From: an uncultured Candidatus Saccharibacteria bacterium
Lineage (GTDB): Bacteria; Patescibacteriota; Minisyncoccia; GWC2-36-17; CAYHJU01
Length of the DNA: 38,131 nt
NCBI GenBank assembly: GCA_964357175.1
Contig: CAYHJU010000004.1
Location: 1-38,131, forward strand
Direction: 5' to 3'
The notes below the pieces were generated by a model. The model was given only the letters and a program-made list of their open reading frames with translations, was not told the DNA's origin and ran no database searches. The translations under genes and the position numbers were made by a program. Positions 802 through 38,050 of the stretch are shown piece by piece (the stretch's first letter is position 1; the number at the start of each line of letters is the position of its first letter).

Positions 802-826
802 GTATAAAATAATTGTAGAAATATTT

Positions 827-1117
827 ATGAAAATACAACCTTTAAACGATTATGTTCTTATAGAGCCACTCAACGCGGAACAAAAACTTAAAAGTGGCAT
901 AGTTTTACCAGATACAGCCGACAAGGAAAAATCCCAACAGGGGAAAGTGGTGGCTGTTGGTCCAGGAAAAATGCTTGAAAACGGTAAGAGACAAGCGCTG
1001 GAAATAAAAAAGGGTGATAAAGTACTTTTTACCAAGTACGGGCCGCATGAAATAAAAATAGAAAATAAAGAATATTTAATTGCCAAAGAAGAAGACGTTT
1101 TGGCGATTTTGAGTTAA
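827..1117 (+). CDS. groES: Co-chaperonin GroES
   Basis: MKIQPLNDYVLI...SGIVLPDTA...GKVVAVGPG; upstream of groEL. Confidence 0.98.
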   Translation: MKIQPLNDYVLIEPLNAEQKLKSGIVLPDTADKEKSQQGKVVAVGPGKMLENGKRQALEIKKGDKVLFTKYGPHEIKIENKEYLIAKEEDVLAILS

Positions 1118-1163
1118 AATTATTTATCAATTAATTTTTTAATACGCTCAAAGTCAGATTTTA

Positions 1164-1183
1164 CCTGCCTGCCGGCAGGCAGG
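1164..1183. repeat. 20-bp palindrome CCTGCCTGCCGGCAGGCAGG (REP-like)
   Basis: Perfect palindrome; related copies at 4697-4716, 13181-13224 and 29259-29274. Confidence 0.85.
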
Positions 1184-1215
1184 GATTTGATTTTTGAGAT
1201 TTAAGATTAAAACAT

Positions 1216-34526: not shown

Positions 34527-34892
34527 ATGTCTCCTTATACTAGGAATTTACAGAAAAAAAATCAGAGTTTAGTGAGCGCGCTAAGCTTGAATAATATGAA
34601 TGAAGCAAAATTTTGGATGATATGCTCAATCTTTGTCGCGGCAGTTTTGGGTATATCGTTTTTGATTGTGGTTTCGCACGTTACGACACTCGGCAAAGAC
34701 ATCAATGTCATGAATAGTGGTTTAAAAGAGGCCCAACAAAAATTGCTTGTTTTAAGAATGGGTTTGGCCAATAATCAAATTGATTATGCTCTGCGCGGTT
34801 TTGCCGCAGATAATAAAATGGTCGCTTCAAACAAATTTGAATACACTTCACGAGCTAGCACCGCATTGGGTATAAATCTATTGCCAAACTAA
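34527..34892 (+). CDS. FtsL-like bitopic membrane protein
   Basis: Single TM plus coiled coil, positioned between rsmH and ftsI. Confidence 0.6.
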   Translation: MSPYTRNLQKKNQSLVSALSLNNMNEAKFWMICSIFVAAVLGISFLIVVSHVTTLGKDINVMNSGLKEAQQKLLVLRMGLANNQIDYALRGFAADNKMVASNKFEYTSRASTALGINLLPN

Positions 34893-34998
34893 AAATTTAG
34901 CCATCCTTAGACAAGCCCTTCGGCAGTGAGCTCAGGGCCGAACTGCTCGAGATTTTAAGTAGTAAATTTGTGGAGCTGTTTTCAGTTAAGAGGGAATT

Positions 34999-36765
34999 AT
35001 GTCCAATAAAACTTATGACAAAACTATAGAATTTCGGATCAAGCTTTATTTTATTATTATTTTATGTGGAGCGACCTTAGTTTTAGGCCGCTATTTTTAT
35101 TTACAAGTAATAAATCATCAAGAATTGTTAGCAAGCGCCAATGCTGAACATGCTTTTGATAAAATACTAAAGCCACAAAGAGGAGAAATTTTTATTAAGG
35201 ATAAGTCTGGGGAAAAATATGCTGTGGCCATAAACAAACAACTATTTACTCTGTATGCCATCCCAGCACAAGTGGAAGACAAAGAGGTCGCGGCTAAATT
35301 TTTAGCAGATATTTTAAAAATTGATCAAGAAAAATTGTACAACAAATTAAACTCTAACTCTAAGGCGGCGTATTTGGTGGCTAAAAACATAAGCGTTGAG
35401 ACTATGGGCGCTATTTTAAATAAAAAAATTGAGGGTACATATAATGAAGAAAATGACTTTAGAGAATATCCTTTGAAAAATATTTTATCCCAAACCTTGG
35501 GATTTGTTGGTTTTGATGAAAATAGCAACAGAGTTGGGCGTTATGGTTTGGAAAAATATTACAATGATATTTTAGAGGGCCGTGAAGGAAAGTTTATAGG
35601 AGAAAAAACAAATGAAGGAACGTGGTTGCCTTTTGGAAAACAGGAAATAGACGCGGCTCAGGATGGCGCCGATTTAACGCTGACCATTGATTATTCAATA
35701 CAAATAAAATCCCAACAGGTTCTTGAAGAAACAATTAAAAAATGGAACGCAGAAAGCGGGGTAGTGATAGTGATGGATCCCAAAGATGGCAAAATCTTAG
35801 CCTTGGCCGGCTCTCCTGGTTATGATCCAAATAATTTTGGCCAGACAAAAGATTTCAGTTTGTTTTTAAATGGAGCCACGCAGATTGGATTTGAGCCGGG
35901 CTCTATCTTCAAGCCATTTACTATGGCGATGGGACTGGACTTGGGGCTTGTGACTCCCAGTACTCAATATGAGGACACGGGGTCTCTAAAATTTGGAGGA
36001 TATACTATAAAAAACTATGACGGCAAGGCGCATGGAGTGCAAACTATGACAGAGGTTCTGGAAAAATCATTAAACACAGGGGCGGTTTTTGTTCAGCAAA
36101 AAGTGGGGATGGATAATTTTTTGAAATACACCTCAATTTTTAAATTGGATGAAAAAACGGGGATTGATACGCTGGAAACAAATGGATCTTTGGCCAACCT
36201 CAACGATCGCCGTGATATTAATTTTGCTACCGCTTCTTTTGGTCAGGGCGTGAGATTGACGCCGATGGAAATTGTCAGGGCTTTCAGCGCTGTCGCCAAC
36301 GGAGGATTTTTAATTCAACCTCATCTGCTTAGCACCATAAAACATTCTAGCGGTATGGAAGAAAAAGCGACTTGGCCAAAACCTCAGAGGATTCTAAAAG
36401 AAAGTACAGCTCAGAATTTATCCGCCATGCTTGTCAATGTGGTTGAACACGGATTTGATAAAGCCAAAATAGAAGGATATTCTATAGCTGGAAAGACAGG
36501 TACGGCCCAAATACCAAATCCTAATGGCGGAGGTTATTTGCCACCGGACCAGATGATCCATTCATTTGTCGGTTTTGCTCCGGCTTACGATCCTAAGTTT
36601 TTAATTTTAATGAAAATAGTAAGGCCCAAAGGTATAAACTTTGCATCAAATTCTTTGACGCCATATTTTAGAGAATTAACAAACTTTATCTTACAATATA
36701 TGCAAATTCCTCCCGATAGGCCCATAGCGTCACCATCTCCTTCTTTAACTAATATAAATTTATAG
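34999..36765 (+). CDS. ftsI: Class B penicillin-binding protein (FtsI/PBP3-like)
   Basis: RGEI.., REYP, GLEKYY, LTID, EPGSIFK (SxxK), SLN (SxN), GKTGTAQ. Confidence 0.92.
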   Translation: MSNKTYDKTIEFRIKLYFIIILCGATLVLGRYFYLQVINHQELLASANAEHAFDKILKPQRGEIFIKDKSGEKYAVAINKQLFTLYAIPAQVEDKEVAAKFLADILKIDQEKLYNKLNSNSKAAYLVAKNISVETMGAILNKKIEGTYNEENDFREYPLKNILSQTLGFVGFDENSNRVGRYGLEKYYNDILEGREGKFIGEKTNEGTWLPFGKQEIDAAQDGADLTLTIDYSIQIKSQQVLEETIKKWNAESGVVIVMDPKDGKILALAGSPGYDPNNFGQTKDFSLFLNGATQIGFEPGSIFKPFTMAMGLDLGLVTPSTQYEDTGSLKFGGYTIKNYDGKAHGVQTMTEVLEKSLNTGAVFVQQKVGMDNFLKYTSIFKLDEKTGIDTLETNGSLANLNDRRDINFATASFGQGVRLTPMEIVRAFSAVANGGFLIQPHLLSTIKHSSGMEEKATWPKPQRILKESTAQNLSAMLVNVVEHGFDKAKIEGYSIAGKTGTAQIPNPNGGGYLPPDQMIHSFVGFAPAYDPKFLILMKIVRPKGINFASNSLTPYFRELTNFILQYMQIPPDRPIASPSPSLTNINL

Positions 36766-36778
36766 TTTTTAATTAAAT

Positions 36779-38050
36779 ATGATGAGAAAAATTTTACAAA
36801 AAATCACTAAATTTTTAGCCCAGCTTGTCGTTAGAAGATATCAACCCAAGGTCATAGCTATCACAGGGAGTGTGGGAAAAACCAGCACCAAAGAGGCGAT
36901 ACGTACAGTTTTGGAGCATGAATTTAAGGTGAGAAGCGCTATTTTAAATCAAAACAATGAAATTGGTGTTCCGCTTACTATACTTGGTGAGCAAGGCGCC
37001 GGCAAAAATATTATGGGCTGGGTGACAATTTTTTTACATGCTGTATTTTTAATTTTGATAAAGTCTAAAAATTATCCGCAGATTTTGATTTTAGAATATG
37101 GAATAGATAAGCCAGGCGACATGGATTATTTGCTCTCTATCGCAAAGCCCTTGGTGGGAGTAATGACCTCTATTGGGGAAATTCCTGCGCATGTAGAATT
37201 TTTCTCGGGCTCAAAGGCGCTTGCTAAAGAAAAGTCCAAGATGATTTATGCTTTGCCAGAAAGGGGACTGGCGGTATTAAATTTTGATGATGCGGTTGTT
37301 TCTGCGATGCAAGATATTACAGACGCAAAATGCGTGACATATGGCTTTGGGCAGGGAGCAGATATTTTGGGGGATGAAATATCTATTTTACAGGATGTGG
37401 AAAAAGGCTTGCTGGGCACGACTTTTAAAGTTCATGCTGGCGGAAGTTTTGTGCCGGTGAGAATTTTAGGTTCTTTTGGTAAACCTCAGGCCTATGCGAT
37501 ATTGGCGGCTTTTGGAGTAGGAATGTTTTTAGGAATGAATTTGGTGGAAATTTCTCAGGCTTTGCAAAAGTATCAATCTTTGCCTGGCAGGACAAAAGTT
37601 ATTCCAGGCATAAAAAACTCTTTGATTATAGATGACACTTATAACGCATCGCCACTGTCAATGCACGCGGCGTTGGATTTTTTACAGGGCATCAGCGCGT
37701 CGCGTAAAATTGTTGTTTTGGGCGATATGCTTGAAATAGGTAAATATTCGGAAGAGGCCCACAGGAGCGTTGGTGATAAAGCTAAAAATATAGCCGACTT
37801 TATAATAACAGTAGGGGAGAGGGCTAAATTTATATACCAGGAGGCTTTGGAAAATAATTTTTCCCAAGATAATTTAAAACATTTTGAAACATCTAAAGAG
37901 GCCGGAGAATTTTTGGATAGAATAATTGAGGCGGGCGATGTCGTGCTTGTGAAAGGTTCTAGGGCCATGCGCATGGAAAAGGTGGTGTATGAGATCATGG
38001 AACATCCGGAGGAATCAAAGAAACTATTAGTAAAAGATCCTCTTTCTTAA
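36779..38050 (+). CDS. murF: UDP-N-acetylmuramoyl-tripeptide--D-Ala-D-Ala ligase
   Basis: ITGSVGKTSTK, NNEIGVPLT, DDTYNASP, VLGDMLEIG, VLVKGSR. Confidence 0.95.
   Translation: MMRKILQKITKFLAQLVVRRYQPKVIAITGSVGKTSTKEAIRTVLEHEFKVRSAILNQNNEIGVPLTILGEQGAGKNIMGWVTIFLHAVFLILIKSKNYPQILILEYGIDKPGDMDYLLSIAKPLVGVMTSIGEIPAHVEFFSGSKALAKEKSKMIYALPERGLAVLNFDDAVVSAMQDITDAKCVTYGFGQGADILGDEISILQDVEKGLLGTTFKVHAGGSFVPVRILGSFGKPQAYAILAAFGVGMFLGMNLVEISQALQKYQSLPGRTKVIPGIKNSLIIDDTYNASPLSMHAALDFLQGISASRKIVVLGDMLEIGKYSEEAHRSVGDKAKNIADFIITVGERAKFIYQEALENNFSQDNLKHFETSKEAGEFLDRIIEAGDVVLVKGSRAMRMEKVVYEIMEHPEESKKLLVKDPLS

Follow-up and report, generated by a model that had tools for sequence, protein, structure and literature searches.

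The stretch of DNA analysed here, referred to as the window, is 38,131 nucleotides (nt) long and makes up an entire contig (C4; CAYHJU010000004.1) of an uncultured Candidatus Saccharibacteria bacterium. The assembly of this genome, labelled G000 (G036 and the other G numbers denote relatives), comprises 757,863 bases in 30 contigs with a GC content of approximately 39%, and genetic code 11 suits it. The genes of the window are preceded by two kinds of translation-initiation signal: the conserved genes start behind A/T-rich leaders that lack a Shine-Dalgarno (SD) sequence, and a minority of the accessory genes start behind a strong SD sequence. These are probably two styles of expression signal that are both read by the cell's own ribosome, in an SD-poor lineage of the kind known from the Bacteroidia.

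Gene calling by dicodon scoring, greedy selection and start refinement with a two-class start model yielded 744 genes, 47 of which lie in the window; a 63-amino-acid (aa) open reading frame (ORF) at 9065–9256 on the minus strand is additional to these 47 automatic calls. The SD class is defined by a 6–8-nt match to AAGGAGGTGAT at the proper spacing, and conservation is defined by the presence of a homologue in the same-class genome G036. The prfB gene was excluded from the counts of SD-led starts due to its internal frameshift SD. The gene identities given in the original prediction, a reading of the sequence alone, agree with Pfam, and an Rfam scan of the window returned two transfer RNAs (tRNAs) and nothing else.

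The original prediction described A/T-only leaders at the core genes. SD-less, A/T-rich leaders are indeed found at groES, groEL, ctpA, rplI, rpmA, sod, dsbA, rplJ, rplL, mraZ and murF, and the same is true of prfA, rpmE and rsmH. The gene singled out as the exception, ftsI, does contain a short purine match, GAGG (within aagagggaattATG), though the quoted AGAGGGG is a small misquote. The core genes of the window are as follows.

787..2871, plus strand: groES (827–1117, A/T leader gaaatatttATG) and groEL (1216–2871, A/T leader ttaaaacatATG), both without SD
6105..7864, plus strand: ctpA (6145–7383, S41 peptidase) and rplI (7421–7864), both without SD
7928..8240, minus strand: rpmA (7928–8200, L27), leader attaaattATG, without SD
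9405..10731, plus strand: sod (9445–10041) and a dsbA-like gene (10069–10731), both without SD
25266..26569, minus strand: rpmE (26314–26529) and prfA (25266–26303), both without SD
27272..28272, plus strand: rplJ (27312–27827) and rplL (27880–28272), both without SD
33071..38050, plus strand: mraZ-rsmH-ORF-ftsI-murF cluster, all without SD save the 4-nt GAGG at ftsI

The strong SDs that had been noted at accessory genes of the window are also present, at a distance of 4–7 nt from the start codon in seven ORFs, and four further ORFs are preceded by a 5-mer SD. No window gene with a G036 homologue has an SD of at least 5 nt (0/18), compared with 10 of the 29 genes without a homologue. The features of the SD-led genes are listed below, the seven ORFs with strong SDs being contained in the first seven lines and the four ORFs with 5-mer SDs being the second ORF of the third line and the ORFs of the last three lines.

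5485..6088, minus strand: boxA copy 1; promoter TTGACC-N17-TACATT at 6060–6088, 12-base-pair (bp) leader hairpin, SD at 6006–6012 within GAACTTTGAAAAGGAGG, ATG at 6001, 162-aa ORF at 5513–6001, terminator-like hairpin at 5485–5504
9009..9345, minus strand: boxA copy 2; promoter at 9317–9345, leader hairpin, SD AAGGAGG at 9263–9269, ATG at 9256, 63-aa ORF at 9065–9256 encoding a predicted two-helix membrane protein, terminator-like hairpin at 9009–9032
18859..19514, minus strand: boxA copy 3; promoter at 19486–19514, leader hairpin, SD AAGGAGGTG at 19430–19438, TTG start at 19425, 112-aa ORF at 19087–19425 followed directly by a 75-aa ORF at 18859–19086
26702..27067, minus strand: boxA copy 4; promoter at 27039–27067, leader hairpin, SD AAGGAG at 26985–26990, 91-aa ORF at 26702–26977
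17915..18838, plus strand: 17977 cassette; promoter TTGATA-N18-TACAAT at 17915–17944, leader GCACATTTAAAAAGGAG, SD at 17964–17969, GTG start, gene at 17977–18795 for a 272-aa orphan protein, terminator-like hairpin at 18812–18838
20613..21823, minus strand: NDT (PF15891) and Nudix-like gene at 20654–21811, SD AAGGAG at 21818–21823, terminator-like hairpin at 20613–20638
24043..24805, plus strand: short M50 peptidase gene (24056–24805, 249 aa), SD AAGGAGGT at 24043–24050
17372–17716, plus strand: orphan ORF of 114 aa, GGAGG at 17361–17365
2940–3401, minus strand: orphan ORF of 153 aa, weak SD AAGGA at 3409–3413, promoter TTGACT-N17-TAGTAT at 3450–3478
22531..23155, minus strand: orphan ORF of 203 aa (22531–23142), TTG start, AGGAG at 23151–23155, a weaker member of the class

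Terminator-like hairpins thus lie directly 3′ of four window cassettes. In two window cases the SD points to a start inside the longest ORF; one of these is the NDT/Nudix gene, whose true start is an ATG 8 codons inside. Besides the short M50 gene, an accessory duplicate, G000 has an RseP-type copy on contig C17 that lacks an SD; no orthologue of the short gene was found in 39 of 40 relatives. The 162-aa ORF does not exhibit a match with any Pfam or PHROG entry.

The four boxA leaders share approximately 80–86% identity over the stretch that runs from the −35 box to the SD inclusive, and each of them stops precisely at the start codon of its ORF, the four ORFs (162, 63, 112 and 91 aa) being unrelated to each other. 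Among the copies, the 12-bp leader hairpin exhibits one compensatory change and several one-sided changes. The leader was not found in the rest of G000 nor in 18 same-order genomes, barring one 24-nt match, and it looks like either one promoter-leader module that is reused locally or a small regulon. A mini-stem that would sequester the SD (CYUU with AGGA) was considered for all four leaders and dropped, as RNAalifold gives four weak pairs with no compensatory support.

The two styles of the window recur throughout the genome. At 729 first-in-ORF starts, taken with no SD information, GGAG peaks at positions −11 and −10 only (19 and 21 genes), with 0–5 genes at the other positions. The hexamer AGGAGG precedes 31 of 730 starts (4.25%) and 0.26% of 10,067 internal in-frame start codons, a 16-fold enrichment, and 4-mer SDs are depleted (1.9% at starts versus 6.5% at internal in-frame start codons). 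The refined starts (n = 742) are composed of 62 with a 6–8-nt SD, 26 with a 5-mer and 654 with a 4-mer or none, so that approximately 90% of G000 genes are without an SD. Pairing energies (dG) were compared with a mock window placed 40 nt further upstream of the SD window. With the canonical tail of the 16S ribosomal RNA (rRNA), 37 genes reach −12 kcal/mol or lower in the SD window versus 9 in the mock, and with the tail of G000 itself the numbers are 18 and 2. At the threshold of −4 kcal/mol weak pairing is not enriched (214 matches versus 251 in the mock); the excess begins only below about −9 kcal/mol and amounts to some 16–40 genes at the strong end, depending on the tail. At refined starts, 21 genes pair with their own tail at −13 kcal/mol or lower. 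Since weak pairings are not in excess and strong ones are, SD strength is bimodal, either strong or none. The number of true SD-led starts is estimated at 45–60, with 7–11 in the window; this is lower than 62 because the 6-mer class must include some false positives.

The SD-less starts have a sequence context of their own. Among 127 homology-checked SD-less starts, 73% have a T at −1, an A occupies −5 to −3 in 55–60%, and little G is present between −10 and −1 (no more than 13%; 9% or less from −10 on, apart from 13% at −11). In SD-less genes the region from −30 to +30 has a median folding energy of −3.8 to −4.0 kcal/mol, versus −9.25 kcal/mol for SD genes and approximately −9 kcal/mol for internal positions (p = 4e-15), and the GC content of the start region is 0.25 in SD-less and 0.45 in SD-led genes. 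The SD genes are mostly first in their transcription unit (51/62 versus 293/652 SD-less genes) and rarely lie within 30 nt of an upstream gene on the same strand (3/62 versus 230/652). A promoter of the form TTGACN-N16-18-TANNNT is present within 110 nt upstream of 23 of the 50 unit-first SD genes and 24 of the 293 SD-less ones, and GTG starts are frequent in the SD class (12/62 versus 14/652). From this arrangement, the members of the class are predicted to be self-contained units of promoter, leader, SD, ORF and terminator.

A pattern of this kind could be produced by mis-called starts, by chance occurrences of GGAGG in GC-richer DNA, or by operon position, including leaderless first genes. 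The starts do come from our own caller, which shifted 134 of them in refinement, and the 6-mer class is close in size to the chance expectation if several candidate starts per gene are allowed. The GGAG peak nevertheless exists at unrefined first-in-ORF starts and is missing from the mock windows, and the homology-checked SD-less starts exhibit the same context. Operon position and translational coupling are ruled out as the source of the SDs by the predominance of unit-first genes and the scarcity of operon-internal ones. The SD-less class does not consist of leaderless messages either: the position matrix contains no TAnnnT signature at −12 to −7, and where promoters were found, the −10 box ends a median of 27–55 nt before the start codon. 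These controls largely refute an artefact, which we regard as very improbable.

A ribosome that makes little use of SD pairing had been suggested from the window, with inspection of the 16S rRNA 3′ end for CCUCC as a check. The 16S gene of G000 is split over the contig ends C12:23414–24592 and C22:1–143, and model positions 9–546 span 937 bases, which indicates that the gene contains an insertion; the assembly gave no match for a 23S gene. The 3′ end, located at the start of C22, is GGATCATCTCCTTTCTAGGG. Its tail, CAUCUCCUUUCU, has the core UCUCC, one C-to-U change from CCUCC, so the canonical anti-SD is not retained (GGAUCAUCUCCUUUCU) and GGAGG can still pair with one G·U. The CCTCCT motif is accordingly missing from the 16S end (CATCTCCTTTCT) due to a single-base variant and not a deletion. 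Together with the roughly 90% of genes that have no SD, this weakened core bears out the suggestion of little SD use.

The same region varies widely among the relatives. The tails of 18 relatives are composed of ten canonical ones, one CATCTCC, one TTCTCC and six without an anti-SD. Class-wide, 42 readable tails include 23 canonical, 4 CATCTCC and 15 degenerate or lost, in a count whose search pattern required a T at a fixed place and so missed some tails. The CATCTCC form turns up in four families or more (G000, G022, G082 and G152, plus G002), and CACTTCTTATCT is a second recurrent variant (G060, G092 and G120). These tails suggest that, within the class, the anti-SD is being eroded step by step. 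The loss of the anti-SD in Parcubacteria is itself already published: in the available part of Tsurumaki et al. 2022 (PMC9297842), CCTCCT is detected in 48% of Parcubacteria, and the losses overlap the group that lacks the ribosomal protein uL1. G000 resembles this group, as it has no CCTCCT and no detectable uL1, and the 23 canonical tails of 42 are near the 48% of that paper. The uL1 domain (PF00687) was not found in G000, which is estimated to be 100% complete, and the control search was positive in 14 of 14 known genomes; no rplK-rplA is present upstream of rplJ-rplL in the window. The lack of a detectable uL1 places G000 in the Parcubacteria subgroup with published anti-SD loss (PMC9297842, as far as its available text describes it). 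Unlike the present analysis, that text deals with rRNA and ribosomal proteins, and gene-level SD use, a link to rpsU and SD-led accessory genes do not feature in it.

Two genes outside the window bear on whether the weakened tail still functions. The first is rpsU, encoding bS21 (C27:5668–5916, minus strand), whose product is divergent (PF01165 at 19.8 bits, below the cut-off) and is identified by phmmer against the PDB, which returns bS21 chains nearly exclusively; a homologue is present in 39 of 41 relatives. The SD of rpsU, AGGAGGTGA, lies 10 nt before the ATG and pairs at −15.6 kcal/mol with the own tail and −18.2 kcal/mol with the canonical one. The pairing with the own tail ranks fourth of 728 genes and is not the strongest. 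The second gene, prfB (C20, L044:2669–3784), contains a +1 frameshift site, AAGGAG-CGT-CTT-TGA-C, whose SD precedes CUU UGA C by 3 nt, and its true start, ccaaaaatATG, is SD-less. As in the prfB frameshift of Escherichia coli and Flavobacterium johnsoniae (PMC10798248, available text), the internal SD in G000 precedes CUU UGA C; unlike the SDs of the cassettes, it is not an initiation signal. Because rpsU keeps an extended SD and prfB keeps an SD-dependent frameshift site, the anti-SD of G000 presumably still works. The idea that the SD-led messages are tuned for a different ribosome is thus not needed, given that the own tail pairs with GGAGG through one G·U and that both of these sites are kept.

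The rpsU SD was compared across relatives by direct inspection. A class-wide pattern search was dropped since its reversed control matched in about one in five genomes and since it overlooked rpsU SDs already known, and the rpsU loci of G091 and G103 were not located by tblastn and hence lie outside the comparison. The results by anti-SD state are as follows.

Canonical anti-SD: strong rpsU SD in 12 of 15 genomes, one more partial, none in G057 and G118
Lost or degenerate anti-SD: strong rpsU SD in 2 of 11 genomes, G074 and G133 (the tail of the latter keeps UUCUCC)
CATCTCC tail: rpsU SD in G000, none in G002 and G022

The difference between the first two groups has a Fisher p value of 0.004, which is indicative only, as the relatives are not independent.

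This combination of features is known from the Bacteroidia, which have SD-blind ribosomes, a Kozak-like A at −3 and autoregulation of rpsU (Baez 2019, PMC6847099; Jha 2021, PMC7797042; McNutt 2023, PMC9976891; Naeem 2026, PMC13000453; the first, third and fourth for these points, within their available text). G000 is similar in that SDs are scarce with weak SDs depleted, starts are A-rich and unfolded, an anti-SD is retained, the extended rpsU SD exceeds −13 kcal/mol in strength and the prfB frameshift SD is kept. It is different in that it belongs to another phylum, its core is mutated to UCUCC and is lost in many relatives, strong SDs occur at dozens of genes instead of a single one, rpsU is outranked by others, and T at −1 is the sharpest context signal. 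The terms Patescibacteria, CPR and Parcubacteria do not occur in PMC9976891, and a literature search that did not cover the supplementary tables of PMC9297842 and PMC9976891 found no account of gene-level SD use or of an rpsU SD in Patescibacteria.

In F. johnsoniae, the anti-SD is hidden by bS21, bS18 and bS6, and rpsU is translated by ribosomes without bS21 (PMC9976891 and PMC13000453, in the text available). A similar arrangement in G000, in which bS21, with bS18 and bS6, hides the anti-SD and only bS21-less ribosomes read strong SDs, would make the approximately 50 SD-led cassettes a translational regulon tied to the supply of bS21. The mechanism is proven in that organism, the rpsU SD of G000 is extended and tends to accompany an anti-SD in relatives, and all-or-none SD use with depletion of weak SDs is expected if only strong pairing can compete for a hidden tail. 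Against this stand the divergence of bS21 in G000, the two genomes with a canonical anti-SD and no rpsU SD (G057 and G118), and the count of genes: Flavobacteriales typically have one strong-SD gene, rpsU (PMC9976891, available part), compared with dozens here, among which rpsU is not at the top. We therefore find a specialised-ribosome regulon doubtful, and prefer the reading in which both styles are served by the same ribosome.

A second leader motif could be connected to the same tail. The sequence C[CT]TT[GA]AAA is present within 60 nt upstream of 47 starts genome-wide, 32 of which belong to SD genes, and this CYTTRAAAA motif often directly abuts the SD. It could lengthen the pairing to the conserved ...CCUUUCUAGGG of the 16S tail. 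Roughly a dozen leaders of G000 have the motif 5–25 nt away from the SD, an arrangement that contiguous pairing cannot explain, and among 30 SD leaders of G020, G025 and G028, which have differing tails, 2–3 match their own extended tail, with no general covariation. The sequence AACTTTGAAAAGGAG presumably resembles the T7 gene 10 leader, or 'epsilon' enhancer. If the hidden-anti-SD switch were widened from rpsU to a regulon, ribosomes with an exposed tail, for example bS21-less ones, would translate the approximately 50 cassettes, the 14-nt CYUURAAAAGGAGG would pair via ...CCUUUCUAGGG, and lineages without the tail would hold the cassettes and be unable to switch; as a prediction from the leaders we consider this rather unlikely.

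The SD-led genes form a distinct set. A G036 homologue is present for 3 of 60 SD genes and 355 of 647 SD-less genes (Fisher p = 2e-15). An equation of accessory genes with strong SDs therefore holds in one direction: an SD implies an accessory gene, but an accessory gene does not imply an SD, as only 57 of the 367 genes without a G036 homologue are SD-led (at least 6 nt), with 18 more having 5 nt. The SD genes are thus lineage-restricted, and the comparison of codon usage between the classes that had been proposed was run and finds them to be compositionally atypical. The median GC content is 0.425 for SD-led accessory genes versus 0.382 for SD-less accessory genes (p = 6e-8), the GC content at third codon positions is 0.431 versus 0.366, and the native dicodon score per codon is 0.197 for SD-led accessory genes, below the 0.318 of SD-less accessory genes and the 0.394 of core genes. 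No Pfam family is assigned to 42 of 62 SD genes. Those with families include M50, PepF, DUF444, SpoVR, a beta-CASP nuclease, a queuosine-salvage protein and an Xre antitoxin, as well as miaA, patatin, a CAAX protease, NDT, tmk and an S41 protease, and several SD-led genes duplicate a core function (S41 protease, M50 and FtsH).

Within this set, the DUF444 gene (C12:990–2285) and the SpoVR gene (6847–8550) form a yeaH/ycgB-like pair that is SD-led at both genes, with large ORFs between them (L031), and no predicted SD pairing in G000 is stronger than that of the DUF444 gene, at −18.9 kcal/mol. The only multi-copy protein family of the class is composed of three orphans of 208–229 aa (C27:4597, C3:19741 and C9:14876) with 39–51% identity, all of which are SD-led. 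In the window, nearly all genes of the approximately 8 kb from 16882 to 24805 are without a G036 homologue (orphans, a SWIB protein, a zinc-finger protein, NDT/Nudix and the short M50). This stretch holds six of the window's SD-led genes and adjoins a tRNA-His gene (24969–25043, minus strand). The stretch resembles an island, but an integrase was not found in the window.

The family of the 17977 gene can be traced further than the others. The protein has six homologues among 5.8 billion proteins, and all named ones belong to Parcubacteria or Patescibacteria. The gene was not found in any of 40 relatives, and a contig scan for the family turned up a single distant locus. For six relatives of the gene, the DNA was read (L160–L164 and L159; 87, 63, 63, 35, 30 and 31% identity). 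All six have a −35/−10 promoter, an AAGGAG(G)-type SD at the proper spacing and a GTG or ATG start, and five of the six have a leader motif of the CTTTAAAAA type. As promoter and SD are kept down to approximately 30% identity, the signals of this one traceable family are maintained with the gene and are not decaying.

These results bear on the proposal that the SD-led genes are recent imports from SD-using donors or mobile elements, with the SD as unused, decaying baggage of the donor. Composition and codon use fit this proposal, namely the higher GC at all and at third positions and the native codon score below that of SD-less accessory genes. The same direction is indicated by the near absence of G036 homologues, the lack of the 17977 gene in all 40 relatives and of an M50 orthologue in 39 of 40, the second copies of core functions, the presence of the same class in the anti-SD-less G036, and SDs that match CCUCC better than the own UCUCC. 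It is contradicted for the 17977 family by the retained promoter, SD and start codon at 87–30% identity and by the taxonomy of the named homologues. A phage source was rejected: matches to PHROG are limited to 8 of 61 SD proteins, none structural, and the three window proteins tried (17977, 5513 and 24056) have no viral-contig relatives, in single-protein queries that reach close relatives only. The one boxA leader, 81% identical on four unrelated ORFs and confined to this contig, also looks like local reuse and not like four independent acquisitions. Recent import is thus an improbable explanation for the class. Phage morons are autonomous cassettes of promoter, gene and terminator with deviant composition. 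The units described here are similar in being single-gene units between core genes that have a promoter and terminator of their own, a strong SD and a deviant GC content, and they are different in lacking a prophage context, structural PHROG matches and, for the three proteins tried, viral-contig relatives, and in having signals that are conserved over deep divergence. From the family that can be followed, the SD-led genes appear to be a flexible, lineage-restricted pool in which the SD, where traceable, is a maintained property.

Other features of the window concern neither class as such. A repeat of 60–70 nt, GATTGCCCAAAGGGCATTTAACAGGGTAAA, with a small hairpin is present at 26530–26600 (minus strand) and 34457–34526 (plus strand) and on C22 upstream of 4158; the copies are 90–93% identical and adjoin the 5′ side of rpmE, of a 121-aa ORF at 34527 and of one C22 gene. 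Intergenic near-perfect palindromes with stems of 17–20 bp lie at 7874–7911, 10754–10796 and 13181–13224. They are terminator-like, and two of the three have the core CCCGCCCTTTTGG in common.

The main loose end is G036, a complete genome of 651,549 bases with a single 16S gene without an anti-SD (3′ end near 389,700, minus strand; loci L083–L115) and no other copy of the tail. Several findings there and in G000 weigh against SD use by the cell's own ribosome. At unrefined starts of G036, GGAGG forms a peak of 30 versus 5.6 expected, and 28 genes have a 7–8-nt SD. In G036 the motif cannot act by 16S pairing, so part of the G000 class may likewise be carried unused. In G000, the count of GGAGG to GGAGA at the peak is 41 to 11, such that the SDs suit CCUCC better than the own UCUCC. 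The 16S tail sits on a separate contig of a binned assembly, and G002 and G022, with UCUCC tails, have no rpsU SD. Chance alone would supply approximately 27 members of the 6-mer class, assuming that each gene is tried at four candidate starts, an estimate from background, and the starts are those of our own caller. We infer the use of the SDs in the cassettes from conservation.

The SD genes of G036 are accessory as well (a G000 homologue for 3/28 versus 349/610) and GC-richer, and consensus promoters precede 8 of 14 unit-first SD genes versus 16 of 241 other unit-first genes. The rpsU gene of G036 has lost its SD. In nearly all of 41 genomes, AGGAGG-N4-8-ATG exceeds its reversed control regardless of the tail. 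At least some of the SD-class genes thus travel or persist with an SD where pairing is impossible, and import with baggage is alive as an explanation for at least some members.

It had also been proposed that the SD-led transcripts or cassettes are meant for the ribosomes of a host cell on which the organism lives as an episymbiont. The generic bacterial signals of the cassettes (consensus promoter and canonical SD), the persistence of the class in a relative whose ribosome has no anti-SD, and the large share of products without a Pfam match would suit such messages. Nothing ties the SD-led genes to a transfer machinery, a signal or a host, however, and the class counts the native rpsU and ordinary enzymes (miaA, tmk, PepF and the beta-CASP nuclease) among its members. 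The own anti-SD is able to pair with the SDs of the class, and a look through public runs listed none of RNA for window positions 17001–27000. Translation in a host is thus unsupported and unnecessary, and we give it almost no weight.

The preferred reading, that one ribosome serves both styles, would work as follows. By default, in approximately 90% of genes, including all conserved window genes and most accessory ones, initiation would be SD-independent and rely on an unfolded, A/U-rich and G-poor start region in which A occupies −5 to −3 and T precedes the start codon at −1, similar to the Kozak-like context of the Bacteroidia; the four-domain bS1 of G000 presumably aids this process. The minority style would comprise some 45–60 autonomous single-gene units with a consensus-type −35/−10 promoter, a short leader and a private terminator. 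The leader often contains a 5′ hairpin, CYTTRAAAA or both, followed by an extended SD, AAGGAGG(TG), 4–7 nt from the start codon, which is frequently GTG. These SDs are predicted to pair with the retained but weakened anti-SD, and the SD may substitute for the missing unfolded start region.

For annotation, gene callers with a single start model will misplace starts in such genomes; under the longest-ORF rule the NDT gene, the 19087 gene and prfB are mis-started. If the reading is correct, it would extend the only proven bacterial case of specialised ribosomes, that of rpsU and the anti-SD in the Bacteroidia, to the unrelated and very large Patescibacteria, and the G000 lineage would be caught part-way through the loss of the anti-SD. 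The series from a canonical tail through one weakened by a single base to none would be a natural one, suited to asking what purpose the SD has when most genes skip it. The cassettes, whose consensus promoters and strong SDs are kept even where a genome has no anti-SD, raise the question of how mobile or flexible genes secure their expression.

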